Assembly (NCBI GenBank): GCA_030593645.1
Contig: JAUVGT010000002.1
Coordinates: 1-32,169 of the forward strand
DNA: 32,169 nt
Source of the DNA: Deltaproteobacteria bacterium
GTDB taxonomy: Bacteria; Desulfobacterota; Desulfobacteria; Desulfobacterales; JAUVGT01
Direction of reading: 5' to 3'
The stretch's first letter is position 1. Each line of letters opens with the position of its first letter. The notes under the pieces were generated by a model that did not search any database, was not told the DNA's origin, and saw nothing but the letters and a program-made list of their open reading frames with translations. The position numbers and the translations under genes are program-made. Of this stretch, positions 1-25,026 are shown piece by piece.

Positions 1-1471
1 CCCATCTGCCGTTGATATAGACCAGCGCCCAGGCATGCGCGTGGCGGTCCCTGACAATATACCTGTTCTCGAATTTACTGAATTCATGGATCGAGTATCC
101 TTTTGAATAGCGCGCCGGCATGCCGGCAGTGCGAAGAAGAAGTATTGAAGCCGTGGCAAAAAACTCACAATGTCCTTTTCTGGAGTTGGTTAAAAATTTT
201 GCAATCGGTGTCCCTTTATCATTATCTTTACCCTGAACAAGAGAGTATTTAAACCGGTCTTTAAAAAACTTTTCCACACTGTTCAGAATTTTTTGAGGGG
301 ATTTCCCGTTGAGTTTAAGCTCTTTCGCGATCCTGTTTAAGACCGGTTTTTCACTTTCCGGCACAAGCAGATCATGCGCGTTCGGTGGACCGGCAGTCGG
401 GACTGATGGATCGAAACTCACATCATAAACCGCCAACCCCGGTCCGCCTTCAACTTTTACAGTCCCGAACCTGTTTCTTTCCATGTTGATGACTTGCAGT
501 TTTTCTACTTTGAAAACACCCCGGGGCAGTTTTAAAAGCCCCTCTCCCTTATTCAGGTAGGAAAAAACCGTAAACCTGCTGCTTGGTTCCGGCCCTTCTG
601 AAAAATTCCAGCTGGTCTGGTTTTTGTCCGGCTGTATTAATACAAAACCGGGCTCCGCGCTAATCCACCTGGAATAATTATATATATTATAACCCGCTTC
701 CTGGAGAAGCAGTGGAAATACTTCTGTATTATCAGTACTTACCCTGAAGATAATCCTGCTTGACGGTTTCAGCGCTCCGATATCCCCAATCGCCGTCTTT
801 GTCTGGAACGGATCCGTTTCACCCTGCCTGAACTTACTGAACCATTCCAGATCTCTTCCTTCCAGGTAGAGCTGCAGCCGGTTAAGCTTCTCATATCCGA
901 CTGCACCGATAACACCTGCCAGAGCCATAAGCATTAAAAATAATGCGATTGAAAACCTTTTTGACCTTACAAACCAAAGCAGGGGAATCGCAAACAAAAG
1001 GAGACCCGCGTAATAATATCCATCCATTACATTGGCTACCCCTGCCGAAAGCACACAAACAGCATAATATGGATACGACAGGTTAAGTCTGATCTGTTTT
1101 TTATTCTTCGCAATCACGTCCTTTTTCTTCCTCCGGAGTGTGAAAAAAAGGGCGCTGATATCCAACTTCTCCCGGGTGGAATATCTCTGCACAATTAAGA
1201 GCGGAAACAAGATCATCGGCAGCCACTGGAGAAGAACCAGGATGATATTGGCAGACCTGTCCCTGACAATCAGGTAGGCGAGCAGTATGATAAAAAGGAG
1301 TGTGCAAAGATCTGAGATACGCCTGAAATCATGATCAGACAGGTCCCACCTGATACTGACAAAGCGGGCTCCTTCATAAAGCAGGAGCATGATTCCCGCC
1401 AGTACCAGCAGTCCGGTATACCAGCCCCAGAAAAGAAGTGAAGCACCGAGGAGAAAAAATGGTGTCTTCAT
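1..1471 (-). CDS. Membrane-anchored transglutaminase-like domain protein (TgpA/DUF3488-like); 3' end runs off the window
   Basis: Absent from the ORF track because there is no stop in the window. ATG at 1471 overlaps the DUF58 stop (ATGA). Manual translation gives MKTPFFLLGASLLFWGWY..., several hydrophobic helices, then RKGHCEFFATA (catalytic Cys motif) and HAHAWALVYINGRW (catalytic His motif), in frame to position 2. Confidence 0.9.
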   Translation of the reverse strand, partial: MKTPFFLLGASLLFWGWYTGLLVLAGIMLLLYEGARFVSIRWDLSDHDFRRISDLCTLLFIILLAYLIVRDRSANIILVLLQWLPMILFPLLIVQRYSTREKLDISALFFTLRRKKKDVIAKNKKQIRLNLSYPYYAVCVLSAGVANVMDGYYYAGLLLFAIPLLWFVRSKRFSIALFLMLMALAGVIGAVGYEKLNRLQLYLEGRDLEWFSKFRQGETDPFQTKTAIGDIGALKPSSRIIFRVSTDNTEVFPLLLQEAGYNIYNYSRWISAEPGFVLIQPDKNQTSWNFSEGPEPSSRFTVFSYLNKGEGLLKLPRGVFKVEKLQVINMERNRFGTVKVEGGPGLAVYDVSFDPSVPTAGPPNAHDLLVPESEKPVLNRIAKELKLNGKSPQKILNSVEKFFKDRFKYSLVQGKDNDKGTPIAKFLTNSRKGHCEFFATASILLLRTAGMPARYSKGYSIHEFSKFENRYIVRDRHAHAWALVYINGRW

Positions 1472-2826
1472 AATTTCATCAGTCCTTCCTGGATTTTCCC
1501 CAGTTTCAACTCAAGAACGTTTCCAGGTTCATGTTTCATTGGCCACGGTTTAATTTTTTCTTTCGTTTTCCCGTTTCCCGTGATGACCATGGCAAGTACC
1601 GGGATCCCAAACCCTTTTAATAAATTGATAAAGTCTTCTCTTTCTTTATCCCAGGAAAGAAAAATGCATATGCATCCGCTTAAAAGATGCGCGCGGTTCA
1701 TCGTAACCGGTGTCAGGCTGCTAAACGGTTTATCTGTACATGGGATCACAGAGGCTAATATTTTAAGAATTTTATCGATATGTGAAATCCCCCTGCCCGA
1801 TGTAAAGCAGTATGCTTCAGTCCCGACAAACATAAGATCCAGAAGTGATTCCTGGGTCTGGATTGAAAAAGCAAAAGAAGCCGCGATCGATATCGCTTCT
1901 TCAAAAATATCGCTGGTACCGGTCTCCTGAAACGTATCCAGTATCAAAGCGTGCCGGACAAAAAATTCATCCTGGTATTCCTTTACAACCGGCTTCCCGG
2001 TTTTTGCCCAGCTCTTCCAATGAAACCGTCTTATGGGATCACCCGGACGGTAATCCCTCAAAGATGTGAACTCCTCAGAATCCCCTATGGAAGAAGCCAG
2101 GGCCACACCGCCTGTCTGATATTTCCTTGTTCCGGAAAGCCCAACAGGCGGAAGCATATATCGTTTCGGAAGTATCAGCAAAGATTTCGGGAGCGGTATG
2201 GTGGTACAGGAATTGAACAGCCCAAGCGGATCAGGACGTGCGATGGTCAGGGCGGTCAGTTTAATCACCCCCCTGTTGGGCGGAACAAATTTAACAGTGA
2301 CATCACAACTGCCGCCGGGTTCAACCGCCGGCAGTTCAGATCCCTTTGATTCTGTATTCTGCTTTCTTGATATCAGCCAGAGCCACCTGTAATACCCAAA
2401 AGTCCGGTCATAAAGATTGCGTTTATTTTCATCCGGTTCGGGTGTATTGATAAATTCTTTAAAACCGGGCAGCGGGTCTTCAAAATTTTCAAAAAGCAAT
2501 AGTCCTTTTTGAACTTTACCGGTATTATTTTTTATGGTGATACGATATTCAACGATCTCCCCTGCCGTACCAAATCTGGGAAGTACCCTTACACCGGTAA
2601 ACCGGAAACGAAAAAAAAGACTTGATACCATGGAAACCGCAAGCAGGGATAAAAAAAAAGTAAACGCCTGGTATACCAATGTCCGTTTGGTATCGACCCC
2701 AACCACGGCGGATGCCGCAAGGCAGATTAAAACAAACACACCGGCCATGGTAAATCGACGCAGGAACCATTTCTTTACCCGGTAAATGTTACGATATGTT
2801 CGATATAAGACGCGTTTGATGATCAA
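1468..2826 (-). CDS. DUF58 domain protein (MoxR partner)
   Basis: Two N-terminal TM segments, DPLGLF, EFTSLRDYRPGDPIRRFHWKSWAK and VKEYQDE motifs; lies directly downstream of moxR. TTG start is approximate. Confidence 0.9.
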   Translation of the reverse strand: MIIKRVLYRTYRNIYRVKKWFLRRFTMAGVFVLICLAASAVVGVDTKRTLVYQAFTFFLSLLAVSMVSSLFFRFRFTGVRVLPRFGTAGEIVEYRITIKNNTGKVQKGLLLFENFEDPLPGFKEFINTPEPDENKRNLYDRTFGYYRWLWLISRKQNTESKGSELPAVEPGGSCDVTVKFVPPNRGVIKLTALTIARPDPLGLFNSCTTIPLPKSLLILPKRYMLPPVGLSGTRKYQTGGVALASSIGDSEEFTSLRDYRPGDPIRRFHWKSWAKTGKPVVKEYQDEFFVRHALILDTFQETGTSDIFEEAISIAASFAFSIQTQESLLDLMFVGTEAYCFTSGRGISHIDKILKILASVIPCTDKPFSSLTPVTMNRAHLLSGCICIFLSWDKEREDFINLLKGFGIPVLAMVITGNGKTKEKIKPWPMKHEPGNVLELKLGKIQEGLMKL

Positions 2827-2834
2827 TGGATTTC

Positions 2835-2858
2835 CTCTGTGATCTCTGAGCCTCTGTG
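2835..2858. repeat. Short tandem CTCTG(T/A)G repeat, 3 units
   Basis: CTCTGTG-AT-CTCTGAG-C-CTCTGTG in the moxR/DUF58 intergenic gap. Confidence 0.5.
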
Positions 2859-2893
2859 AGAAATTTATCTTTTTTGCCTCTCTTTTGTCATTT

Positions 2894-3856
2894 TCATGAG
2901 GGAACTTTCACAGATTCAAGGATATCTTTCACAATCCTTTCCGCGGTGCGTCCGGAGAAACGCGCCTGGGGATCCATGACGATCCTGTGAGCCACCACAG
3001 GTATCGTTATTTCCTGAACATGCTCCGGTGTAACGAATCCGTTCCCGTCAAACAATGCCAGGGCCTGGGACACTTTCATCAGAGCGAGAGATGCCCTGGG
3101 GCTGGCTCCTAGCTCAACCCCGTCCATTGTCCGGGTCGCGTCCACGATATCAACAATATAGCGTTTCATCTCAGCACTGATCCGCACCTGTTTCACCTGC
3201 TGTTTTAATTCATTCACATCCTCGATTGTCACGCATGCTTTAATCTTATCTACCGGGTGATCCTGAAGCTGGTCCGTCAAAATGGTGACTTCATCATCCG
3301 GTGACACATAACCAAGACTAAACTGCAACGCAAACCGGTCCATCTGTGCTTCCGGCAGCGGGTATGTCCCGCGGGACTCAACCGGGTTTTGAGTGGCGAC
3401 CACAAAAAACAACTCCTCAAGCCTGTATCGCTTTCCGTCCACACTCACCTGTGATTCGCCCATAGCTTCAAGCAACGCGGACTGGGTTCTGGGTGACGCA
3501 CGGTTGATCTCATCTGCCAGCACGATATTGGCAAAAATCGGTCCTTCATGGAAATGAAATGATTGATCTTTCTGGTTAAAAACAGAAATACCGAGAATAT
3601 CCGATGGAAGCAAATCAGGTGTAAACTGAATACGCTTAAACTTCGCGTCAATCGAAAGTGTCAGAGCTTTTGCAAGCGTGGTTTTCCCGGTGCCCGGGTA
3701 ATCTTCCAAAAGCACATGGCCCCCTCCCGCAAAGGCCGCCAGTAATTTCCGAATCGATTCGGTCTGCCCCTTCATCACCTTTTCAATATTTTCCTTAATC
3801 TTCTGATAAATCTTCCTGCCCGATGTACTGCCGTTTCCATTTTTTGTATTATCCAT
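2894..3856 (-). CDS. moxR: MoxR family AAA+ ATPase
   Basis: HVLLEDYPGTGKT (Walker A), RIQFTPDLLPSD, LADEINRA (Walker B), ATQNPVE, YPLPEAQMDRF, GASPRAS. Confidence 0.95.
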   Translation of the reverse strand: MDNTKNGNGSTSGRKIYQKIKENIEKVMKGQTESIRKLLAAFAGGGHVLLEDYPGTGKTTLAKALTLSIDAKFKRIQFTPDLLPSDILGISVFNQKDQSFHFHEGPIFANIVLADEINRASPRTQSALLEAMGESQVSVDGKRYRLEELFFVVATQNPVESRGTYPLPEAQMDRFALQFSLGYVSPDDEVTILTDQLQDHPVDKIKACVTIEDVNELKQQVKQVRISAEMKRYIVDIVDATRTMDGVELGASPRASLALMKVSQALALFDGNGFVTPEHVQEITIPVVAHRIVMDPQARFSGRTAERIVKDILESVKVPS

Positions 3857-11271: not shown

Positions 11272-11901
11272 ATGGCGACACCGCTGGAAAAAGCCCGTAA
11301 AGCCCCGAATTCGATGAAAGCCAAAATCCTGAAGAAAGCCCGTCGGGTATTTGGTGAGTACGGCTTTCACGGAACCACCACACGAATGATCGCACAGGAA
11401 GTGGGCATCGATATTTCAACCCTGTATTATCACTGGGGTGAAAAGGGAGACCTGTATGAATCTGTCATTGTAGATATTAATGAAGATCTACGACAAAAAC
11501 TGGTTGAGGTTGAGGGTATTATTCATGGCCGGCCCCTTCCGGATCGAATGGATATTGCCATAGATTTGATGACTGATTTTCTTTTCAGACACCCTGAAAT
11601 TTCAAACCTGGTCCTTTTTCAATACTTCGGGAAAACCCGAGGTAAAAAATTAATTAATGTTGAAATTCCCGAATTTGTTTCAGGTATTGCACGGTCCATG
11701 GAGTTGTGTCGGTCGACGGATGATGTTCCCGGCCGTGTCCGCCTTCAGGTCCTGGCAATTATGAATTCAATTCACAGTTTTATCTCAGGCGAACACTTTT
11801 TCCGCAAAATGGTTGAACTGGAAAAAAACGACTACATGGCCGAGGTTAAAAAAACGTTAAAATTCATTTTGATCCCCGCCTTTACAGGGAAGAACAAATA
11901 G
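11272..11901 (+). CDS. TetR/AcrR family transcriptional regulator
   Basis: ILKKARRVFGEYGFHGTTTRMIAQEVGIDISTLYYHWGEKGDLY HTH; 209 aa. Confidence 0.95.
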   Translation: MATPLEKARKAPNSMKAKILKKARRVFGEYGFHGTTTRMIAQEVGIDISTLYYHWGEKGDLYESVIVDINEDLRQKLVEVEGIIHGRPLPDRMDIAIDLMTDFLFRHPEISNLVLFQYFGKTRGKKLINVEIPEFVSGIARSMELCRSTDDVPGRVRLQVLAIMNSIHSFISGEHFFRKMVELEKNDYMAEVKKTLKFILIPAFTGKNK

Positions 11902-12123: not shown

Positions 12124-14253
12124 ATGACCCTCAACCTGAACGCCATTGGGAAAAAAATCGGCCCGCTGGTTAAAGAATACACATGGAAAGACCCGGTTCT
12201 TTATGCCCTGGGTGTGGGTGCGGGCTTTGATGACCTTGAATATGTCTGGGAAGACGGTCTCAAGGTCATACCGAGTTTTTCCATCGCCAGTATCTTCGAT
12301 TTTCTGGCTGAAACAGCCATAAAGGCAGAAGTGGATCTTTCAGGTATTCTTCACGGGGAACAGGATATAATTTTTCACAACCCCATTCCGCCTGAGGGGA
12401 CACTCACAACAGAAGGCCGGCTTACCGATATCTATGATAAGGGGAAAGACAAAGGCGCCATTGTAATCGCCGAGGCCAACACCTTCCATTTAAACGGTCA
12501 AAAACTCTACACAAATATATTCAAGCTGTTTTGCCGCAAAGACGGCGGTTTCGGCGGCGACCCCGGTCCAAAGGAAACAATAAAAATTCCGGATCGAGAA
12601 CCCGATTATACGGAAAATGCCGTCCCCACCAAAAATCAGCCATTACTCTACAGACTCTCAGGGGATATATTCGCCCTTCATATCGACACCGAATACGCGA
12701 AACAAAGCGGTTTTGAAAGACCAATCATGCACGGACTCTGCACACACGGTTATGCCTGCCGGGCTGTAATCAAACATCTATTCCCGGGAAATCCCGAGCG
12801 TATGAACCGTTTCAGGGTTCGCTTTTCAAAAACGGTTTATCCGGGCACACCCATAAAGACCCAAATTTGGAAAACCGGTGAAAATGAAGCTGTCTTTCGC
12901 ACGATCAATGCGGAAACCCAGGATGTCATCCTCGATCTGGGGAAGGTGGAATGGCTCAGCAGCGGTGAACAGGCGCGAAGAAAAAAACTCGGAGATATAA
13001 ACTTTGACGGGAAAGTCGCAGTGATTACAGGCGCTGGTGCGGGTCTTGGAAAAGCCTATGCCCTGGAACTTTCCAGACGGGGGGCCAAAGTACTGATCAA
13101 CGACCTTGGCGGCGCGCCGGATGGTACAGGATCTTCTTCCTCTGCCGCGGACCTTGCTGTAAAGGAGATTAAAAACACGGGAGGAGAAGCTTCTGCCAGT
13201 TATGATTCCGTGGCCACACCCGAAGGCGGCAGGGCCGTCATTGACAAGGCTGTTAAACTCTGGGGCAGGGTCGACATACTGATTAACAATGCAGGTATTT
13301 TAAGAGACCGGACGCTGGCAAAAATGGAACCCGATACATGGAAGTCTGTAATGGATGTACACCTGAACGGAGCATTTCACGTCACAAAACCGGCATATGT
13401 AAAGATGAAAGAGCAGGGTTACGGCCGCATCGTGTTTACCACATCCGCGGCCGGACTCTACGGCAATTTCGGTCAGTCCAATTATTCATCAGCCAAAATG
13501 GGGCTTATCGGATTAATGAACAGTATTAAAATCGAAGGTGAAAATGCCGGTATTAAGGTGAATACCATTGCCCCGATCGCCGGCACACGGCTCACCAGGG
13601 AAGTCATTCCGCCGGACCTTTTTGAAAAGCTCAAACCCGAGTTCGTGGTACCGATCGTACTGTACCTGTGCTCGGAGCTATGTCCGGTATCGGGAAATGT
13701 TTATAACGCGGGGATGGGATATTTTAATCGGGCAGCCGTGGTTACCGGACCCGGTGCCGTGATCGGTGATGGTCAAACCCCGCCGACTCCTGAAGAGATT
13801 GCTTTAAAAATGGCATCCATCAAATCAATGGATCCGCCCAAAGAATACTTCAATGCCACGTCCGCCCTGTCACCAATGCTGGATGCCTTTAATCCTGAAA
13901 GTATCGATGCGGGTGAAACTGCCGGATGCCCTGAAATCACTGTGGCTGCTATTTTTGAAAAAATGCCGGATGCCTTCCAGCCCGATGCCGCAAAAGGTGT
14001 GGATGCAATATTCCAGTATACCATCAGCGGCCCCAATGGCGGAGAGTGGTATTCTGTAATCAGTAAAGAGAATTGTACGGTTGATCAGGGTAAACATGAA
14101 AACCCCACGACGACCATCAAGATGAACGATGATGATTTTCTGGCATTGATGGGAGGCAAGCTCAACCCCATGACAGCTTATACCAGCGGCAAGCTGAAAA
14201 TTGAGGGCGACATAATAAAATCTCAACTGATTGATAAACTATTTAAGTTCTAG
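12124..14253 (+). CDS. Fusion: (R)-specific enoyl-CoA hydratase 2 (double hot-dog/MaoC) + SDR 3-hydroxyacyl-CoA dehydrogenase + SCP2; MFE-2/HSD17B4-like with permuted domain order
   Basis: LYALGVG, LHGEQ, YRLSGDIFALHID...HGLCTHG (hydratase 2); TGAGAGLG, NDLGG, INNAGILRD, GNFGQSNYSSAK (SDR); QYTISGPNGGEW...LNPMTAYTSGKLKIEGD (SCP2). GGAGG RBS. Confidence 0.92.
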   Translation: MTLNLNAIGKKIGPLVKEYTWKDPVLYALGVGAGFDDLEYVWEDGLKVIPSFSIASIFDFLAETAIKAEVDLSGILHGEQDIIFHNPIPPEGTLTTEGRLTDIYDKGKDKGAIVIAEANTFHLNGQKLYTNIFKLFCRKDGGFGGDPGPKETIKIPDREPDYTENAVPTKNQPLLYRLSGDIFALHIDTEYAKQSGFERPIMHGLCTHGYACRAVIKHLFPGNPERMNRFRVRFSKTVYPGTPIKTQIWKTGENEAVFRTINAETQDVILDLGKVEWLSSGEQARRKKLGDINFDGKVAVITGAGAGLGKAYALELSRRGAKVLINDLGGAPDGTGSSSSAADLAVKEIKNTGGEASASYDSVATPEGGRAVIDKAVKLWGRVDILINNAGILRDRTLAKMEPDTWKSVMDVHLNGAFHVTKPAYVKMKEQGYGRIVFTTSAAGLYGNFGQSNYSSAKMGLIGLMNSIKIEGENAGIKVNTIAPIAGTRLTREVIPPDLFEKLKPEFVVPIVLYLCSELCPVSGNVYNAGMGYFNRAAVVTGPGAVIGDGQTPPTPEEIALKMASIKSMDPPKEYFNATSALSPMLDAFNPESIDAGETAGCPEITVAAIFEKMPDAFQPDAAKGVDAIFQYTISGPNGGEWYSVISKENCTVDQGKHENPTTTIKMNDDDFLALMGGKLNPMTAYTSGKLKIEGDIIKSQLIDKLFKF
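13003..14253 (+). repeat. SDR-SCP2 module, paralogous copy 1
   Basis: Collinear with 15770-17023 (1251 vs 1254 bp); both start FDGKVAVITGAGAGLGKAYA and end KSQLIDKLFKF. Confidence 0.9.
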
Positions 14254-14284
14254 AAGTGGATTTATTACAAGGGAGAGTATATCC

Positions 14285-17023
14285 ATGATCGGAATCACAT
14301 CATACGGCGCACATATACCAAAACTCAGGTTAAACCGAATGAGTATTGTAGAAAACATGGGCTGGTTTGCCCCGGCGATTGTAATGGTTGCCCAGGGAGA
14401 GCGTTCCTATTGTAACTGGGACGAAGACAGCCTCACCATGGCCGTTGCCGCGGCAACGGACTGTCTAAAAAATATGGACAAACAATCAGTTGACTCCATA
14501 TTTCTCTGCTCAACAACACTGCCCTTTAACGACCGCCTTAACGCGGGTATTCTTAAAACCGCCCTGAACCTTCATGACCAGGTGTCTGCCGCAGACATCA
14601 CATCTTCTGTTCGTGCCGGTACCATCGGTCTTGTGCAGGCGCTTGAGGTAGTGAAAAACCGGGGAAAAAAACAGGCCCTGGTAGCCGCCACCGATAAACG
14701 AAAAGCCAAAACCGCTTACTTTTATGAAATGTGGTTTGGTGACGGCGCTGCCGCGGTCCTTACCGGACGGGACAATGTCATCGCGGAATATTTGGGTTCT
14801 TATACGGTGACCCATGATTTTGTTGACCATTACCGTGGATCTGACAGCGATTTCGATTACATGTGGGAAGAACGATGGACCCGTGACCAGGGTTACTCAA
14901 ACATTATTCCGGAAGCGGTCAACGGTCTTTTTAACACACTTTCAATGACCATGGATGATGTTGACCATTTTGCCTTTCCCTGTTTTTTTGCTGCCGAACA
15001 CAGCAAAATCGCTGCCAAACTGGGCGCCTCCCCTGAAAAAATCATCAACAATATGCATGATGTGTGCGGTGAAACCGGTGCCGCGCATCCCCTGATGATG
15101 TTAATCACAGCACTGGAAAAAGCATCCCCCGGCGACACAATACTTGCCGCGGGCTTTGGCCAGGGAAGCGACGCGCTGCTCTTTAAAGTAACAGATGCCA
15201 TTAAAGATCTGCCTGAACGAAACGGTGTATCCGGGTGCCTTAAAAACGGTAAAACGGTTTCAAGCTATACAAAATTCCTCAAGTTCCGTGATCTTATTGA
15301 TACAGAAATGGGTATCCGGGCAGAAGCTCCCACCCAGACGGCCATGACCGTGCTCTGGCGAAAACGCGATATGCTCCTGGGCATGGTCGGAGGCCGCTGC
15401 ACTGATTGCGGTACTCCCCAGTTCCCCAAAGCAGATATCTGTATTAACCCTGCCTGTAGAAAAAAAGATACTCAACAGCCCTATGAATTCGCGGATAAAC
15501 CTGCATATGTAAAAAGTTTCACAGGGGATCTTCTGGCCGTATCGGTTGATCCGCCTGCAATATACGGTATGGTGGAATTTGAAGACGGCGGCCGGTACAT
15601 GGCAGATTTTACGGATTGTGAGATGGATGATGTCGCTGTGGGGCAGCCTGTAACCCTTAGCTTCAGAAAGCGCTACGTTGACCGGGAACGCGGGTTCAGC
15701 GGCTATTTCTGGAAAGCGATCCCTGAACCGGGACAAACCGAATCACCGGAATCCGATCAAACCATAAGATTTGACGGCAAGGTGGCTGTGATTACAGGTG
15801 CCGGCGCGGGCCTGGGCAAAGCATACGCCATAGAGCTTTCCAGGCGGGGAGCCAAAGTGCTTGTAAACGACCTCGGCGGATCGACGGATGGAACCGGATC
15901 TTCTTCCAGTTCCGCGGATCTGGTTGTAAAAGAAATCACGGACGCGGGCGGAGAAGCCGCGGCCAATCACGAATCCGTGTCCACACCCGAAGGCGGCAGG
16001 GCAATTATTGATCAGGCTGTTAAGCTCTGGGGCCGGGTCGATATATTGATTAACAATGCGGGTATATTAAGAGACAAAACCCTGGCAAAAATGGAACCGG
16101 ACATGTGGCAGCCTGTTATGGATGTACATCTCAACGGCGCATACCATGTGACACGGCCGGCTTTTATAAAAATGAGGGAACAGGGTTACGGTCGCATCGT
16201 CCTAACCACTTCCGCAGCCGGGCTTTACGGTAATTTCGGGCAAACCAACTACTCATCTGCCAAACTGGGCCTGGTCGGTTTTATGAACACACTTAGAATC
16301 GAAGGTGAAAAAGCAGGGATAAAAATCAACACCATTGCCCCGATCGCGGGGACAAGGCTGACCCGGGATATCATTCCGCCGGATCTTTTTGAAAAGCTCA
16401 GTCCCGAATTTGTAACACCCATGGTCATCTATCTTTGCTCTGAAAAATGCACGGAAACAGGTATTATCGTTAACGCGGGCGGGGGATATTTTAACAGGGC
16501 GGCGATCAGTACCGGTTCCGGCATCGCTGTGGGTGACGGCAAAAAACCGCCTGAACTTGAAGAAATACATCGCAAATGGGAAGACATTAATGATCTCTCA
16601 GACATCAGGGAATATGACGATGTAACAAGTTCTTTGAATCCCATGCTTGAGGCTTTCAATCCTGACAATGAAAAAAAAGCTGGAGTTAAAAATGATTCAT
16701 CAAAACCGACCGTACAAAACATATTCGACAAAATGACTGACATGTTTCAGGAGGAAGCAGCAGAAGGCATCGACGTGGTCTTTCAGTATAACATCAGCGG
16801 TCCCGGAGGCGGAGAATGGTATTCTGTTATTAAAAATCAAACGTGTACCATTCAGGAAGGCACACATGAAACCCCGGATACGGTTATAAAGATGAATGAT
16901 GAAGACTTCATCTCCCTGATGTCAGGCGGTCTTAATCCGATAACCGCCTATACCAGCGGAAAACTGAAAATTGAGGGGGACATCATGAAGTCACAGCTTA
17001 TTGATAAGTTATTTAAATTCTGA
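14285..17023 (+). CDS. Four-part fusion: HMG-CoA-synthase-like thiolase fold (catalytic Cys apparently absent) + DUF35 Zn-ribbon/OB fold + SDR + SCP2
   Basis: MIGITSYGAHIP, WDEDSLTMA, DITSSVRAGT, GDGAAA, GETGAAHP, GFGQGSDA; CTDC-x10-CINPAC and OB fold ending GYFWKAIP; SDR (TGAGAGLG, NNAG, YSSAK); SCP2. Start moved to ATG 14285 after a GGGAGAG RBS. Confidence 0.9.
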   Translation: MIGITSYGAHIPKLRLNRMSIVENMGWFAPAIVMVAQGERSYCNWDEDSLTMAVAAATDCLKNMDKQSVDSIFLCSTTLPFNDRLNAGILKTALNLHDQVSAADITSSVRAGTIGLVQALEVVKNRGKKQALVAATDKRKAKTAYFYEMWFGDGAAAVLTGRDNVIAEYLGSYTVTHDFVDHYRGSDSDFDYMWEERWTRDQGYSNIIPEAVNGLFNTLSMTMDDVDHFAFPCFFAAEHSKIAAKLGASPEKIINNMHDVCGETGAAHPLMMLITALEKASPGDTILAAGFGQGSDALLFKVTDAIKDLPERNGVSGCLKNGKTVSSYTKFLKFRDLIDTEMGIRAEAPTQTAMTVLWRKRDMLLGMVGGRCTDCGTPQFPKADICINPACRKKDTQQPYEFADKPAYVKSFTGDLLAVSVDPPAIYGMVEFEDGGRYMADFTDCEMDDVAVGQPVTLSFRKRYVDRERGFSGYFWKAIPEPGQTESPESDQTIRFDGKVAVITGAGAGLGKAYAIELSRRGAKVLVNDLGGSTDGTGSSSSSADLVVKEITDAGGEAAANHESVSTPEGGRAIIDQAVKLWGRVDILINNAGILRDKTLAKMEPDMWQPVMDVHLNGAYHVTRPAFIKMREQGYGRIVLTTSAAGLYGNFGQTNYSSAKLGLVGFMNTLRIEGEKAGIKINTIAPIAGTRLTRDIIPPDLFEKLSPEFVTPMVIYLCSEKCTETGIIVNAGGGYFNRAAISTGSGIAVGDGKKPPELEEIHRKWEDINDLSDIREYDDVTSSLNPMLEAFNPDNEKKAGVKNDSSKPTVQNIFDKMTDMFQEEAAEGIDVVFQYNISGPGGGEWYSVIKNQTCTIQEGTHETPDTVIKMNDEDFISLMSGGLNPITAYTSGKLKIEGDIMKSQLIDKLFKF
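15770..17023 (+). repeat. SDR-SCP2 module, paralogous copy 2
   Basis: Collinear with 13003-14253; many differences fall at synonymous positions. Confidence 0.9.
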
Positions 17024-17038
17024 AAGATTTAAATAACA

Positions 17039-17143
17039 AAGGGTTCGAGGGGTCAAGGGTTCGAGTATTATTTCCCCGGCGGGGCGATGCATTACTTCCC
17101 GCATTTCACTTGAACCCTTGGCCCCTTGAATCCTTGAACCCTT
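17039..17143. repeat. Intergenic inverted repeat built from 8-bp units (REP-like hairpin)
   Basis: AAGGGTTCGAGGGGTCAAGGGTTCGAGT (17039-17066) pairs with ACTTGAACCCTTGGCCCCTTGAATCCTT (17108-17135), followed by one extra unit; small CCCC-GGC-GGGG hairpin in the loop. Confidence 0.75.
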
Positions 17144-17209
17144 ACATCTCAAACTCTTTAAGGCGGTAAACAAGGGATTTTCAAATACACAAATTTCCCG
17201 GAGGAAAAT

Positions 17210-20050: not shown

Positions 20051-21748
20051 ATGGAAATCTATGACAGCAAGCCATGGCTAAAGTCCTATGATCCAGGTGT
20101 CGAAACCAGTCTTCATATTCCGGATGAACCGGTAACTGCCGGTTATGAAAGGATCAGAAAACGTTTCCCGGACAGACCGGCCTTCCATTTTCATGGGGTA
20201 ATGTGGACATTTGAAAAAATGTTTAATGCCGCTGATCGTTTTGCCCGGGCGCTGTCGGACCGGGATATCGGTAAAAATGATGTCGTGGCCATTAATTTAC
20301 CGAATCTTCCCCAATATCTTATCGCCCAGCTGGGTGCGACAAAAATGGGCTGCTGGATAACCGGAATTTCCCCACTTCTCCTGGCCGATGAAATGGCATT
20401 CCAGCTCAAAGATTCCGGTGCAAAAGCTCTTGTCACACTGGATCCAATTTATGAACATCGCCTTTTACCGGTTATTGACCAATTACCGGAACTTAAATTT
20501 ATCGTTTCCACGGGTATCCTCGATTTTTTACCCAGGTTTAAACAAATCATGGCCGCACTGCTGAAAAAGGTTCCAACCGGTAATGTAAAACCCATACCCG
20601 GCAAAGATGTGATCAAATTTATGCCGCTTCTAAAAAAACATGAACCGAATCCGCCCCGGGTAGATATCCACGCGGATGATATTCACCTCCTCCAGTACAC
20701 CGGCGGCACCACAGGTACTCCAAAAGGCGCCATGCTGACCCACCGCAACATTCTGAGTCAGGCTTTATTCTGGAATACCTGGTTTGATATGAATATAGGC
20801 ACGGATGTTTCATGTTCAGGTTATCCATATTTCCATATCGGCGGTCAATGCTCTTTTGTTGCAACCATATGGCTCGGCGCAACACAGATATTAATACCCA
20901 ATCCCCGGGATACCAAACATATTGTTAAAGAAATTGCCAGGTACAAACCTCATTTTATAAATAATGTGCCGTCACTTTACATGCTTCTTTTAGATACTCC
21001 CGGTTTTAAAGATCTTGACTTTTCATCGGTCCGCTTTGCCACCGCCGCCGCCGCTCCGTATCCTGTTGAGCCCTTAAAAAAGCTTGAGTCCGTGATCGGA
21101 GCCGATAAGGTGGTGGAACTCTATGGGCTGACTGAAACGTCCCCCCTTGTGACCATGAATCCGGTTAAGGGAACAAAAAAAACAGGAAGCGTGGGTATTC
21201 CCGTTCCGAATACTGAAATCAGACTCGTGGATATCCTCACCGGTGATACCCAGGTACCCCAGGGTGAAAAGGGGGAACTGATCGTACGCGGTCCCCAGAT
21301 TATGAAAGGTTACTGGAACAAACCTGAAGAAACAGCGAATGCAATGCGTCAGCATGACGGTAAAACCTGGCTTCATACCGGCGATATTGCCGTTATGGAC
21401 TCTGACGGTTATATCAGTATCGTAGACCGTTCCAAAGACATGATAAACGTCAGCGGATTCAAGGTTTTCCCACGTGAAGTTGAAGAAAAACTCTACAACC
21501 ACCCCGCAGTCAAAGTATGCGCGGTGGTCGGTGTCGATGATCCGGATCGGCCCGGAAGTGAGATGGTCAAACTGATCGTCCAGATGAGCGATGACTGGAA
21601 AGATAAATCCGAAACAGAAATAATTGATGAAATCAACACCTTTTGCAGGGAGAAACTCGGTGCACATAAAAAACCGAAACTGATCGAAATTATCGATGAA
21701 ATACCGATGACTGCAGCCGGTAAGGTTGACCGCAAAGTACTTCGGTGA
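20051..21748 (+). CDS. Long-chain-fatty-acid--CoA ligase (FadD-like AMP-forming ligase)
   Basis: QYTGGTTGTPKG, YGLTETSP, GPQIMKGYW, WLHTGDI, DRSKDMI, GKVDRK. Start moved to ATG 20051 (MEIYDSKPWLKSY). Confidence 0.95.
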   Translation: MEIYDSKPWLKSYDPGVETSLHIPDEPVTAGYERIRKRFPDRPAFHFHGVMWTFEKMFNAADRFARALSDRDIGKNDVVAINLPNLPQYLIAQLGATKMGCWITGISPLLLADEMAFQLKDSGAKALVTLDPIYEHRLLPVIDQLPELKFIVSTGILDFLPRFKQIMAALLKKVPTGNVKPIPGKDVIKFMPLLKKHEPNPPRVDIHADDIHLLQYTGGTTGTPKGAMLTHRNILSQALFWNTWFDMNIGTDVSCSGYPYFHIGGQCSFVATIWLGATQILIPNPRDTKHIVKEIARYKPHFINNVPSLYMLLLDTPGFKDLDFSSVRFATAAAAPYPVEPLKKLESVIGADKVVELYGLTETSPLVTMNPVKGTKKTGSVGIPVPNTEIRLVDILTGDTQVPQGEKGELIVRGPQIMKGYWNKPEETANAMRQHDGKTWLHTGDIAVMDSDGYISIVDRSKDMINVSGFKVFPREVEEKLYNHPAVKVCAVVGVDDPDRPGSEMVKLIVQMSDDWKDKSETEIIDEINTFCREKLGAHKKPKLIEIIDEIPMTAAGKVDRKVLR

Positions 21749-21758
21749 TGAGGCGCAT

Positions 21759-23867
21759 ATGGACGAATTAAAAATAAAGCAGCTTGAAAATGGTATAGCT
21801 GTTGTGAGCATTGATGATCAAGAGCGGACTGTTAATACGTTGACACCCGATCTGCTGCTGGAATTTGCCGAAAAGATTGTCCCTCTTTTAGAGAATCCTG
21901 CTGTCCGGGCCATGGTATTTATCTCGGCAAAAAAAAATACATTTATCGCCGGAGCAGATATCAAACTCTTTTCTTTGATAGATGATCCAAATCTTGTCAT
22001 AAGAGTTGACCGGGCATATAGCCGACTTTTTTCTCGATTTTACAATTGTCCCAAGCCTCTGGTTGCAGCCATTCATGGCGCAGCCCTTGGCGGGGGACTG
22101 GAGCTGGCTCTCTCCTGCGGGTTTATCCTGGCTACTGATCACCCCAAAACAGTATTCGGATTACCGGAAGTCAAACTGGGCATCCTGCCCGCGGCGGGCG
22201 GGACACAAAGGCTGCCAGATCGCGTGGGACTTTTCAGGGGTCTTGAGATGATGCTGACCGGGCGGCACATACGCGCACGAAAAGCACTTGGTATGGACCT
22301 GGTTGATGAAGTGACCCCGCATGAAAGCCTGTTAGACCGTGCCATTGAGATCGCCCTGGTACTCAGCCATAAGAATAAGAAGCATCGGAAGAAAAAAAGA
22401 TCTTTTATGGAATCCATTGTTTCACTTCCGCCGGCTCGCAAATTTGTATTTAATAAACTTCGAAAAAAAGTAATTTTAAAAACACGGGGGAATTATCCCG
22501 GGCCGCTGAAAATTATCGACTGTGTGGAAACCGGTATAAAAAATGGAACAAAAGCAGCATTAAAACAAGAGATAAAAGATATTGGTGAACTCTTCGCAAC
22601 TCCACAGTGTCGCGCCCTGGTGTGGCTATTTTTAACATCACAGGGATTGAAAACTCAACCCGATGGGTTCTTACCTCCTGACAGCATTGCTGTAATCGGG
22701 GCCGGCCTGATGGGTTCGGATATTGCTTCGACCAGTCTTTCCCTTCACCCGGTAGTCGTACAGGACAATTTAAAAGAAGCGCTTGAACGGTCTGAAGACC
22801 GGATCAAAACCGGCTTAAAAAAACAGGTCCGATCACAGGCGATTACAGAAGATGAGCAAAAAAAACGTCTGGCATCATTTAAAACCACCATGGATAAAAA
22901 TGATATTGCCGATTCTGATTTCATCATTGAAGCGGTATATGAAGATCTTGAATTGAAACAGCGCGTCCTTGCTGAAATGGAAAAAATAATATCACCTGAA
23001 GCAGTTTTTGCCTCCTGCACATCCGCCCTGCCGATTTCAAAAATAGCAGAAAAAGCACTTCACCCTGAAAGGGTGATCGGGATGCATTACTTCTCACCCG
23101 CGCATAAAATGCCTCTTTTAGAGCTCGTGGCGCACAAATCAGTGTCTGAGCAAACAGTAAATAAAGCCCGATCCCTTGCGGCCGCTCAGGGCAAATCTGT
23201 TATCCAGGTCAAAGATGAACCGGGATTCTATACCACGCGTATTTTCGCGCTTTACCTGAATGAAGCACTTCTTCTTCTCGCAGAGGGTGCTCGAATTGAT
23301 ATCATCGATAAAACCATGAAAGATTTTGGTTATCCGATAGGCCCGGCAGCTTTGATGGATGAAGTCGGCCTTGACGTCATCGCGCGGGTCGCGAACGATT
23401 TGGGAAAATCATTTTCCGACCGCTGGAAACTCAGTCATGTCACTTCAAGAATGCTTGGGGCCGGCTGCCTGGGACGAAAAAGCCAAAGGGGATTTTATAA
23501 ATACACTGAAGCGAGGAAGAAGAAAAAGAGAATCAATCACAATATTTATTCATTTTTTTCAGATACCGCGTTAAGACCGCCGGCAGTGTCGCAAATTAAA
23601 AACCGCCTGGTCCTTGCAATGGTCAACGAGGCCGCCCTTTGCCTGCAGGAAGGTGTGATTTCATCCCCGGATGATGGTGATATTGGAGCTGTGCTGGGAT
23701 TGGGTTTTCCGCCTTTTATTGGAGGTCCATTTCATTATATTGATTCAAAAGGGGCGGATGTGATCCTGTCCCGTCTGGATCATCTTGCGGATGACGATAA
23801 ACCCCATTTTCAACCGGCACAAATTATAAAAAATATGGCCAAATCCGGCAAAAGGTTTTTCAAATAA
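21759..23867 (+). CDS. fadJ: Fatty-acid oxidation complex alpha subunit (crotonase-type enoyl-CoA hydratase + (S)-3-hydroxyacyl-CoA dehydrogenase), FadJ/HADHA-like
   Basis: FIAGADI, GGGLELAL, LPEVKLGILPAAGGTQRLP, GAGLMG, IEAVYEDLELK, GMHYFSPAHKMPLLE, GDIGAVLGLGFPPFIGGPF. Start moved to ATG 21759 after a GAGG RBS. Confidence 0.9.
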   Translation: MDELKIKQLENGIAVVSIDDQERTVNTLTPDLLLEFAEKIVPLLENPAVRAMVFISAKKNTFIAGADIKLFSLIDDPNLVIRVDRAYSRLFSRFYNCPKPLVAAIHGAALGGGLELALSCGFILATDHPKTVFGLPEVKLGILPAAGGTQRLPDRVGLFRGLEMMLTGRHIRARKALGMDLVDEVTPHESLLDRAIEIALVLSHKNKKHRKKKRSFMESIVSLPPARKFVFNKLRKKVILKTRGNYPGPLKIIDCVETGIKNGTKAALKQEIKDIGELFATPQCRALVWLFLTSQGLKTQPDGFLPPDSIAVIGAGLMGSDIASTSLSLHPVVVQDNLKEALERSEDRIKTGLKKQVRSQAITEDEQKKRLASFKTTMDKNDIADSDFIIEAVYEDLELKQRVLAEMEKIISPEAVFASCTSALPISKIAEKALHPERVIGMHYFSPAHKMPLLELVAHKSVSEQTVNKARSLAAAQGKSVIQVKDEPGFYTTRIFALYLNEALLLLAEGARIDIIDKTMKDFGYPIGPAALMDEVGLDVIARVANDLGKSFSDRWKLSHVTSRMLGAGCLGRKSQRGFYKYTEARKKKKRINHNIYSFFSDTALRPPAVSQIKNRLVLAMVNEAALCLQEGVISSPDDGDIGAVLGLGFPPFIGGPFHYIDSKGADVILSRLDHLADDDKPHFQPAQIIKNMAKSGKRFFK

Positions 23868-23889: not shown

Positions 23890-25026
23890 ATGAACACTGA
23901 AATTTATAAGAAACTGGCTTTGCATCTTGATGACCTTCCTGCAGGCTTTCCGGCAACAGAAAGCGGTGTGGAATTGCGGATTCTGAAACGACTGTTTACA
24001 CCCGAACAGGCTGAGCTTGCCCTGCACACCACAATCATTCCTGAGAAAGCAAAGGTTATCGCGCTTCGTGCCGGAATGAATACCGATGAAACAGAGCAAA
24101 AGCTTAGGGAGATGGTCGACAAAGGGTTGCTTTTCAGCATCGAGTTCCCGGATAAACCGGCCTTATATATGGCCACCCAATATGTGATTGGTATTTGGGA
24201 ATACCAGGTCAATACACTGGACAAAGAATTGATCCGGGACATGAATGAATACATTCCCGAATTTGTTAATTTCGACACCTGGAAAAAATCACCGCAGCTT
24301 CGGACCATCCCGGTCAATCGCAGCGTTGACGCTTCCCTTGAAATCCTGCCCCATGAAATGGCCGCGGAAATGGTCAAAGACCAGAGTAAAATACGTGTTT
24401 TCCCCTGTATCTGCCGCAAGGAGCACTCCATGATTGGAGAAGGCTGCGACAAACCCGAAGAATCATGCCTGGCATTCGGAATGGGTGCTTATTATTACGA
24501 ACGGAGAGGAATCGGTCGTGATATCGACGCTGAAGAATGCATTGAAATTCTCAAACGTGCGGATAAGGCCGGTCTGGTTCTTCAACCGAATAACGCGAAA
24601 AAACTGGTCAATATATGCTGCTGTTGTGGATGTTGCTGCCAGATTCTCAAGAACCTGGGAAAACACCCCAAACCCGCCGAGCTGATTTCCACGCCGTTTG
24701 TAGTCAGGTTTAACGAAGAGACATGCAAAGAGTGCGGGGTTTGTGAAAAACGATGCCAGATTGACGCGATCACAATCGAAGATGATAAAGTATCCCTGGA
24801 TGAAGGACGCTGCATCGGATGCGGGCTGTGTGTATCCACATGCCCCAGCGGATCCATGACACTGGAGCGCAAACCCGATGAAGAGCAAACCTACATCCCT
24901 TCTAACCAGATCAAAAGCCATCTCAGGCTGGCAAAGTCAAGGGGAAAACTCAACCGGGTGAAAATGACCAAAATATCAATCCAATCCAAATGGGACAGGT
25001 GGTTGGCTAATAACCGGAAGAACTGA
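23890..25026 (+). CDS. Cys-rich 2x[4Fe-4S] ferredoxin-domain protein with an N-terminal wHTH-like region
   Basis: CKECGVCEKRC and CIGCGLCVSTCP ferredoxin motifs, plus CICR...C...C and ICCCCGCCC; AAGGA RBS. Confidence 0.88.
   Translation: MNTEIYKKLALHLDDLPAGFPATESGVELRILKRLFTPEQAELALHTTIIPEKAKVIALRAGMNTDETEQKLREMVDKGLLFSIEFPDKPALYMATQYVIGIWEYQVNTLDKELIRDMNEYIPEFVNFDTWKKSPQLRTIPVNRSVDASLEILPHEMAAEMVKDQSKIRVFPCICRKEHSMIGEGCDKPEESCLAFGMGAYYYERRGIGRDIDAEECIEILKRADKAGLVLQPNNAKKLVNICCCCGCCCQILKNLGKHPKPAELISTPFVVRFNEETCKECGVCEKRCQIDAITIEDDKVSLDEGRCIGCGLCVSTCPSGSMTLERKPDEEQTYIPSNQIKSHLRLAKSRGKLNRVKMTKISIQSKWDRWLANNRKN

Follow-up and report, generated by a model that had tools for sequence, protein, structure and literature searches.

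A gene on contig JAUVGT010000002.1, which was analysed whole (32,169 bases, hereafter the window) and belongs to a 4.31-Mb metagenome-assembled genome (MAG) of 446 contigs and 79% completeness from an uncultured relative of sulfate reducers, encodes a protein of 912 residues in which four domains follow one another: a domain resembling HMG-CoA synthase (HMGS; HMG, 3-hydroxy-3-methylglutaryl), a DUF35 domain, a short-chain dehydrogenase/reductase (SDR) and an SCP2 domain. As far as it can be classified from its sequence, this protein is a real, conserved and uncharacterised member of the inactive PhlA-type branch of HMGS-like proteins, of the Pf (degradative) type, extended by an MFE-2 dehydrogenase and SCP2. 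With a probability of roughly 0.7, we take it to be a non-catalytic docking subunit with a catalytic passenger, which would hold the dehydrogenase against the thiolase encoded by the neighbouring gene in fatty-acid breakdown. What is new, as judged by the papers searched, is the SDR-SCP2 extension of the HMGS-DUF35 scaffold, together with the concerted evolution of the SDR-SCP2 modules.

Gene and domain layout

A single open frame (14231-17023, + strand) spans the gene, and its likely start is the ATG at 14285, with a GGGAGAG ribosome-binding site 8 nucleotides before it and the stop of the upstream gene 32 nucleotides before it; residues 2-8 align with the N-termini of PhlA and of archaeal HMGS. 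The Pfam segments (ACP_syn_III_C 220-295, zf-ChsH2 368-394, OB_ChsH2_C 419-461, adh_short 499-686 and SCP2 823-911) and the PDB matches agree, within this one frame, on the four-domain composition that had been proposed from the letters of the DNA and a list of its open frames (the original prediction), and the strings quoted there are all present (DITSSVRAGT 104-113, DED 46-48, CTDC 372-375, CINPAC 386-391, YSSAK 656-660). The features of the gene and of its surroundings are collected in Table 1.

Table 1. Positions in the window of the four-domain gene, its parts and the other features discussed
Feature	Coordinates	Strand	Basis
Four-domain gene: PhlA/HMGS-like, DUF35, MFE-2-type SDR, SCP2 (912 residues and stop)	14285..17023	+	Pfam; full-length relatives at 60-72% identity
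PhlA/HMGS-like thiolase-fold domain, residues 1-345	14285..15319	+	PDB profile matches; residue conservation
Val109 codon, place of the HMGS nucleophilic Cys114	14609..14611	+	Alignment and column counts
DUF35: rubredoxin-like zinc ribbon and OB fold, residues about 350-480	15332..15724	+	Pfam, 6esq_E, PhlB
DUF35-SDR linker, residues 481-493	15725..15763	+	Translation
Putative MFE-2-type (3R)-hydroxyacyl-CoA dehydrogenase SDR, residues 494-790	15764..16654	+	2et6_A, 1gz6_A, 1zbq_A
SCP2 lipid-binding domain, residues about 809-912	16709..17020	+	PF02036
SCP-x/archaeal-type thiolase, 402 residues	17210..18418	+	PDB matches, NF004810, intact motifs
Hydratase-2 (MaoC)-SDR-SCP2 protein, 709 residues	12124..14253	+	Pfam; SDR-SCP2 (last 419 residues) 71% identical to four-domain residues 494-912
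TetR-family regulator, operon head	11272..11901	+	Pfam; same place in most related loci
Acyl-CoA dehydrogenase (ACAD), 380 residues	18451..19593	+	Pfam; after the thiolase in at least 43 of 78 loci
FadJ-like S-specific enoyl-CoA hydratase/3-hydroxyacyl-CoA dehydrogenase	21726..23867	+	732 bits against a cut-off of 869
378-residue protein, sole recognised part a C-terminal 2x[4Fe-4S] ferredoxin domain (residues about 272-323)	23890..25026	+	
Hairpin from a short repeat, 28-bp stem	17039..17143	+	Minimum free energy -66.3 kcal/mol, z -5.19
MoxR-type AAA ATPase/DUF58/transglutaminase-like trio, ordinary and unrelated	2-3856	-	

The HMGS-like domain

When the N-terminal 345 residues are compared as a single sequence with the PDB by phmmer, the PhlA-type chains 9skh_A (9.5e-32) and 5m3k_A (3e-31) precede the archaeal HMGS 6esq_I (1.2e-24), and a profile built from 41 N-terminal modules places the domain nearer to PhlA (9skh_A 3.1e-48, 5m3k_A 1.5e-43) than to archaeal HMGS (6esq_I 1.7e-36). 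The latter match runs over profile positions 2-339, so that the homology to HMG-CoA synthase covers the whole thiolase-fold domain. Both phmmer and the profile align AADITSSVRAGT with AADLEFACKAGT of 6esq_I, and Val109 therefore stands at the place of the nucleophilic Cys114; in the family consensus the segment reads AADLTSSLRAGT. The catalytic tetrad is numbered E82/C114/H238/N270 in the archaeal enzyme (Nat Commun 2026, PMC12960953; this paper, like PMC11321319 and bioRxiv 10.1101/2024.07.05.601840 below, is cited from part of its text). The profile alignments are unambiguous at all four positions, where Glu82 (VGSESHPY in 6esq_I, LCSTTLPF in the family consensus) is replaced by Thr77, His238 (VFHQP and VFPCF) by Pro232 and Asn270 (LGNTYSG and CGETGAA) by Glu263. 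These replacements extend across the family, with Pro232 in 120 of 120 sequences, Glu263 in 119 of 120 and Thr77 in 52 of 52, while in the nucleophile column of 120 members the five commonest residues (Leu 106, Val 4, Met 3, Gln 3 and Glu 2) account for 118 and do not include Cys.

The apparently inactive HMGS domain of the original prediction is thus borne out by sequence and profile alignments, with Val109 at Cys114 and all four E-C-H-N positions replaced, as in PhlA. The DED motif, which had also been reported as kept, does occur throughout the family (120/120). The catalytic Glu, however, is another residue, which aligns with Thr77, and since DED is kept in PhlA as well it says nothing about activity. 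The HMGS equivalog models of NCBIfam remain under their cut-offs (NF003274 194.8 against 244 bits; TIGR00748 121.9 against 353.35), and with neither the tetrad nor an equivalog score above cut-off the four-domain protein is classified here as not an HMG-CoA synthase. The former pocket is highly conserved: Cys233, His268 and Asp46-Glu47-Asp48 are present in 120 of 120 sequences, Glu263, as said, in all but one, and Cys261 in 118. In the profile alignment Cys233 adjoins the former catalytic His position, where PhlA has Gln-Gln and no Cys.

The DUF35, SDR and SCP2 parts

Residues 357-480 match the DUF35 subunit 6esq_E (4.2e-11 with the single sequence, 1.3e-12 with the profile) and PhlB (2.2e-4); PF01796 (OB_ChsH2_C) reaches 31.3 bits against a cut-off of 27.1, and PF12172 (zf-ChsH2), at 22.9 against 23.2, is slightly below its own. 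The zinc ligands, predicted to be intact, are invariant (Cys372, 375, 386 and 391, 120/120), and so are Tyr656 and Lys660 of the likewise predicted Y-x-x-x-K motif of the SDR (120/120). The SDR part matches, over residues 494-810, MFE-2 dehydrogenases, those of yeast and mammals among them, including their C-terminal extension (2et6_A 7e-123, 1gz6_A 5e-84, 1zbq_A 5.5e-84, 3oml_A 1.1e-82), and TGAGAGLG (504-511), NNAG (590-593) and Ser643 are, together with Tyr656 and Lys660, invariant or nearly so. Asn528-Asp529 is invariant at the end of beta-2, and an acidic residue after beta-2, here Asp529, is what we take, by the SDR rule, to be the mark of NAD preference; R-stereospecificity and NAD+ use are suggested by this residue and by family membership. 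The SCP2 domain scores 65.3 bits with PF02036 (cut-off 21.3) over residues 823-911.

Conservation and integrity of the fusion

Relatives of the gene were sought by scanning one genome per species, which gave 286 stretches encoding a relative, and the best 78 loci, from Desulfobacterota/Thermodesulfobacteriota MAGs, were kept. The four-domain frame is intact in 64 of them, including carriers on contigs of 4.8 and 5.2 Mb; nine are cut by a contig end and five are interrupted inside the gene (loci L031, L034, L042, L053 and L076), four of these after the SDR part begins. A search of 5.8 billion clustered proteins lists 120 clusters of 893-1040 residues, with 98-100% query coverage and, except for the window's own cluster (100%), 60-72% identity. 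The Pfam families of the HMGS-like, SDR and SCP2 parts are listed for every one of them and PF01796 for 119, cluster P0097 having PF12172 instead. Their public annotation in the clustered-protein listing is usually only "SDR family oxidoreductase", and also "HMG-CoA synthase/dehydrogenase".

Because the SDR-SCP2 module is repeated in the upstream gene, and thus occurs twice within 2.8 kb, a repeat-driven misjoin at the junction of DUF35 and SDR had to be considered, the more so as contigs end at the SDR start in 9 of the 78 loci, which shows that the repeat does disturb assembly in other genomes. In the window, however, DNA identity between the copies is no more than 70-80%, and they have no exact word longer than 22 nucleotides in common, and the junction (about 15725-15763) lies inside one frame in the 64 independently assembled loci, the contigs of 4.8 and 5.2 Mb among them, and likewise in all 120 listed clusters. 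Since the fusion is conserved across related loci it is not a chimera, and the assembly artefact against which the original prediction had warned is refuted for practical purposes. No listed piece spans 15725-15770 in four runs, but the pieces are assembled contigs only and such a gap proves nothing; of the words sampled, a fraction of 0.99 occurs in one probable source run, and no RNA run is listed as containing them.

The operon and its thiolase

Wherever contigs allow, the gene order is conserved as TetR, hydratase-2-SDR-SCP2, four-domain gene, thiolase and ACAD. Among the 78 loci the hydratase-2-SDR-SCP2 gene lies upstream in at least 63, the thiolase downstream in at least 61 and the ACAD is present in at least 43, these counts being lower bounds because contigs end. 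The thiolase that the original prediction had assumed as the partner of the scaffold is encoded by the next gene and is of the SCP-x/archaeal type (7yvy_A 3.7e-59, 6esq_A 6.5e-57 and BbsB 7pxp_C 6e-43 in the PDB; NF004810 675.7 bits against a cut-off of 403). In an alignment of 46 sequences, the window and 45 of the 61 thiolases available, Cys88, His296-Asp-Cys-Phe (296-299) and Gly345-His-Pro (345-347) are invariant and Ser90 nearly so; as the enzyme keeps CxS (Cys88-Ala-Ser), HDxF and GHx it is of the Pf type and not of the Phl/Muc type.

In the upstream protein the Asp and His of the hydratase-2 motif YRLSGDxFxLH are invariant (65/65), and the protein as a whole is a permuted bacterial MFE-2, with the N and C halves of hydratase-2 followed by SDR and SCP2, the order in animals being SDR-hydratase-SCP2. 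The operon of the window continues past the ACAD with a long-chain-type acyl-CoA ligase, a FadJ-like enzyme, whose gene comes after that of the ligase, and an Fe-S protein; with the FadJ-like gene in the cluster both R- and S-specific routes are encoded, and the 378-residue ferredoxin-domain protein might serve as an electron outlet for the ACAD.

The thiolase gene begins 186 nucleotides after the four-domain gene, and this spacer (17024-17209) holds the hairpin of Table 1. In 60 of 62 related loci the corresponding spacer measures 10-295 nucleotides, and the hairpin may therefore be a lineage-specific insertion. Its repeat is of the GGGTTCRAGG type, and the differences between its arms allow G.U pairs in the RNA of the + strand only; related copies occur on three other contigs of the genome, and positions 17101-17144 are covered to depths of 140 and 95 by metagenome contigs whose flanks vary widely. 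Rfam, at gathering thresholds, gives no match in the window.

Concerted evolution of the two SDR-SCP2 modules

Both genes of 57 genomes (56 loci and the window; one complete copy is wanting in the other 22 loci) were used to build a tree of their SDR-SCP2 modules. Copies from the upstream gene and from the four-domain gene are mixed in this tree, with 18 label changes, 16 of them forced by well-supported branches, and the two copies are sister leaves in 12 of the 57 genomes, including the window (Shimodaira-Hasegawa-like approximate likelihood ratio test, SH-aLRT, 99). Within a genome the copies are 59.8-99.8% identical (median 72.9%), against between-genome medians of 67.9% for upstream with upstream, 67.3% for four-domain with four-domain and 66.0% for upstream with four-domain copies; in 52 genomes the within-genome value is above the cross-genome median, and in 17 it is higher than any cross-genome value. 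The two copies of the window have 23 residues in common that are rare elsewhere (less than 10% of the other 112 sequences), as compared with a median of 3 and a maximum of 8 when the upstream copy of another genome is taken as control.

Repeated gene conversion between the neighbouring modules is the simplest reading of these data, and it also explains the frequent contig ends at the SDR start in other genomes. The SDR-SCP2 part of the four-domain protein is, as judged by the tree and the identities, a copy of the module in the hydratase gene beside it, and sequence exchange between the two continues. The near-identical pairs, in loci L023 (99.8% at the protein level) and L009 (98.3%), could be partly assembly effects, which diverged sister pairs such as that of the window cannot be. 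In nine loci (L013, L018, L051, L052, L060, L061, L066, L068 and L074) the contig breaks off within the four-domain gene, either in its DUF35 part or at or just past the SDR start, and these ends, like the identity of the L023 and L009 pairs, are the mark of near-identical repeats, produced either by recent gene conversion or by assembly collapse.

A wider proposal, which we advance tentatively and with considerable doubt, is that the operon encodes a complete R-specific beta-oxidation machine on a core of the archaeal mevalonate type, and that gene conversion keeps the SDR-SCP2 modules similar because the two pair with one another, in the manner of the MFE-2 dehydrogenase domains of a homodimer, docking hydratase, dehydrogenase and thiolase in one particle.

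Spread and variant architectures

Of 401 genomes sampled evenly from the phylum, 128 have a PhlA-like-DUF35 frame at E <=1e-60. At 60% identity or more to the N-terminal module there are 27 matches, of which 19 lie in frames of at least 890 residues, i.e., in the four-domain form; the others comprise one frame of 868 residues cut at the N-terminus, two of 710 and 755, two of 811 and 815 (lengths of the form without SCP2), one of 601 (the length of the SCP2-only form) and two contig-end fragments. At least 19 of the 401 sampled genomes thus carry the full-length form, and among the anaerobic Desulfobacterota, sulfate-reducing and syntrophic, the family is a common one. When identity falls below 60%, almost every frame has 470-545 residues and these are true two-domain forms, some of them in single-contig genomes, and the two-domain forms of whole genomes show 59% identity or less to the N-terminal module. 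Many "two-domain" proteins above 60% identity are probably cut at contig ends, since contigs break at the SDR repeat. The protein database also holds forms of 786-816 residues without SCP2, among them an entry under Desulfatirhabdium butyrativorans, as well as SCP2-only forms of some 600 residues. A tree of 143 N-terminal modules has 28 changes of C-terminal-domain label, a figure that is not relied on. More distant PhlA-like-DUF35 modules occur in candidate further fusions, at G269:C378:2358-3809 (48% identity, frame of 1206 residues) and at G165:C38:17667-19100 (41%, 714 residues).

Proposed role and alternatives

In the docking role proposed here, the PhlA/HMGS-like domain, which is devoid of the Glu-Cys-His-Asn tetrad, would be unable to make HMG-CoA, and together with DUF35 it would bind the thiolase of the next gene, as happens in the archaeal thiolase/HMGS/DUF35 complex, in PhlACB, in MucABC and in the P. 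fluorescens ACAT/HMGS-DUF35 complex. The MFE-2-type SDR would oxidise (3R)-hydroxyacyl-CoA to 3-oxoacyl-CoA with NAD+, and SCP2 would hold the acyl chain, long or branched. The oxidation of 3-hydroxyacyl-CoA by NAD+ is unfavourable, and the removal of its product by thiolysis therefore helps; the tether would place this product beside the thiolase that removes it. The rest of R-specific beta-oxidation would be supplied by the operon under TetR, through the acyl-CoA ligase, the ACAD and the hydratase-2-SDR-SCP2 protein. All of the following are predicted features of this role: the docking and the channelling, the flux direction, the R-stereochemistry, the use of NAD+ and the nature of the substrate (probably a long or branched acyl-CoA).

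A model of the complex between residues 1-485 and the thiolase passes with a score of 0.69 (best of three controls 0.00; the mark for such models is reached by 116 of 157 solved complexes and by 2 of 215 mismatched pairs), but as similar complexes had already been solved and our own alignments served as input, it shows likeness and not binding; its runs agree in at least 86% of contacts, the predicted local distance difference test (pLDDT) value of the partner is 90, and the modelled interface joins DUF35 residues 344-475 to thiolase residues 122-264. Several points weigh against the proposed role. The supposedly dead pocket is conserved beyond what a pure scaffold might need, and the S-specific FadJ-like enzyme in the window leaves the need for a parallel R-specific route unexplained. 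The full four-domain set is, moreover, not obligatory, since in close relatives the N-terminal module is joined to SDR alone or to SCP2 alone. The four-domain form is not described in the literature found by full-text searching, supplementary files aside.

The same proteins could run in the synthetic direction, in which the thiolase/DUF35 part would condense acyl-CoA with acetyl-CoA, the R-specific SDR would reduce and hydratase-2 would dehydrate, giving a fatty-acid or storage-lipid synthase independent of acyl carrier protein, like the proposed archaeal fatty acid synthase complex. Thiolases are reversible, and the archaeal system pairs ketothiolase/DUF35 with an R-specific SDR reductase, the same types of enzyme, yet that reductase is described as strictly NADPH-dependent (bioRxiv 10.1101/2024.07.05.601840), and the P. 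fluorescens relative is reported to have formed no acetoacetyl-CoA from acetyl-CoA (PMC12960953). The operon, moreover, has an ACAD and not an enoyl-CoA reductase, plus an acyl-CoA ligase and TetR, as catabolic operons do. The SDR, for its part, has its nearest matches among NAD+-dependent MFE-2 dehydrogenases and retains the acidic residue behind beta-2 to which we gave a presumed meaning above, so that synthesis appears unlikely.

It is rather improbable that the N-terminal domain is repurposed and not dead, with Cys233, Cys261, Glu263 and His268 forming a new site within the former pocket, at which an acyl group would be transferred or the CoA ester would react in some other way. The near-complete conservation of these four residues and the position of Cys233 beside the former catalytic His, where PhlA has Gln-Gln, would agree with such a site, but the canonical nucleophile elbow is Leu or Val, and the conservation would fit equally well folding, a shared CoA chamber at the interface or subunit contacts. 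In the nearest assayed relatives (PhlA, MucA and the P. fluorescens fusion), which are without the E-C-H-N tetrad, catalysis maps to the thiolase subunit (PMC12960953). We hold it to be very improbable indeed that the partner, instead of being a thiolase, is an Ltp2/Sal-type retro-aldolase whose substrates are the side chains of steroids or isoprenoids. DUF35 fusions do dock hydratases on Ltp2/Sal aldolases (PMC11321319), and pathways for steroid side chains typically contain SCP2 and MaoC domains; the partner, however, keeps the nucleophilic Cys88, HDCF and GHP in every one of the 46 sequences, its best matches (7yvy_A, 6esq_A and BbsB) are true thiolases, and a dehydrogenase would be pointless ahead of a retro-aldol step.

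Comparison with known systems

The closest known system is the complex of P. fluorescens PfACAT with a fused HMGS-DUF35 protein, which cleaves acetoacetyl-CoA and, in the part of the paper cited here, is described as making neither HMG-CoA nor acetoacetyl-CoA (PMC12960953). This fusion bears out the statement, already made in the original prediction, that HMGS-DUF35 fusions alone are known. It has in common with the four-domain system an HMGS-DUF35 fusion without the tetrad, a thiolase with Cys, HDxF and GHx and a context free of polyketide synthases and nonribosomal peptide synthetases; the four-domain system adds the MFE-2-type SDR and SCP2, and its operon is a complete beta-oxidation set. 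The PfACAT complex is read by its authors as a pathway-less evolutionary intermediate (PMC12960953), whereas the context of the four-domain gene suggests a role in catabolism. Within the phylum, two-domain relatives reach 59% identity at most.

The best structural relatives of the N-terminal part are in PhlA/PhlB/PhlC (5m3k, 9skh), which, like MucA/MucC/MucB, combine an inactive HMGS-like subunit with a DUF35 protein that bridges to a thiolase-fold subunit. The Phl and Muc systems are, however, C-acetyltransferases of secondary metabolism whose thiolase-like subunit is given as lacking HDxF (PMC12960953), while HDCF is invariant here, and they consist of three separate proteins with no SDR or SCP2, in contrast to the fused four-domain protein. 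The archaeal thiolase/HMGS/DUF35 complex (6esq) has the same three folds, as seen in the matches of the thiolase to 6esq_A and of DUF35 to 6esq_E given above, and it couples an unfavourable step to a favourable one within one complex, as is proposed here, but its HMGS is active and it is anabolic, serving the mevalonate pathway (PMC12960953); in the four-domain protein the HMGS-like domain is apparently dead and the coupled enzyme would be the fused dehydrogenase. A CoA chamber common to HMGS and thiolase lies at their interface and is kept even in inactive complexes (PMC12960953).

In Shy-Sal and ChsH1-ChsH2-Ltp2, of steroid side-chain degradation, a DUF35 domain is fused to the preceding beta-oxidation enzyme and docks it on a thiolase-fold enzyme, a coupling argued to pull an unfavourable equilibrium; there, the passenger is a MaoC hydratase, the partner an aldolase, and an HMGS-like domain is absent from the systems as described (PMC11321319). 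Peroxisomal MFE-2 (HSD17B4; 1gz6, 1zbq, 2et6) and SCPx offer the same set of parts, (3R)-dehydrogenase SDR, hydratase-2, SCP2 and SCP-x-type thiolase, all present here, but in the bacterial host these are arranged as hydratase-SDR-SCP2 and scaffold-SDR-SCP2, with SCP2 on the dehydrogenase proteins and not on the thiolase.

Significance

The first assays of dead HMGS-like/DUF35 partners of bacterial thiolases date from 2026, when these partners were interpreted as remnants of evolution that belong to no pathway, and 1,001 of 1,030 bacterial HMGS-ACAT-DUF35 loci were classed as "minimal" (PMC12960953). The four-domain family puts such a dead scaffold in a conserved operon for fatty-acid degradation, with the preceding enzyme fused on, and the approximately one thousand "minimal" loci would thereby gain a testable job, that of a docking platform for beta-oxidation. 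As the annotation is usually only "SDR family oxidoreductase", reconstructions of carbon flow in sediments and seeps miss the family. The concerted SDR-SCP2 modules would provide a clean natural case of how repeated catalytic modules in neighbouring genes stay alike, and, if the pairing of these modules proved true, the operon would be a bacterial counterpart of peroxisomal MFE-2 and SCPx and a third, independent solution beside the trifunctional enzyme of the FadBA type.

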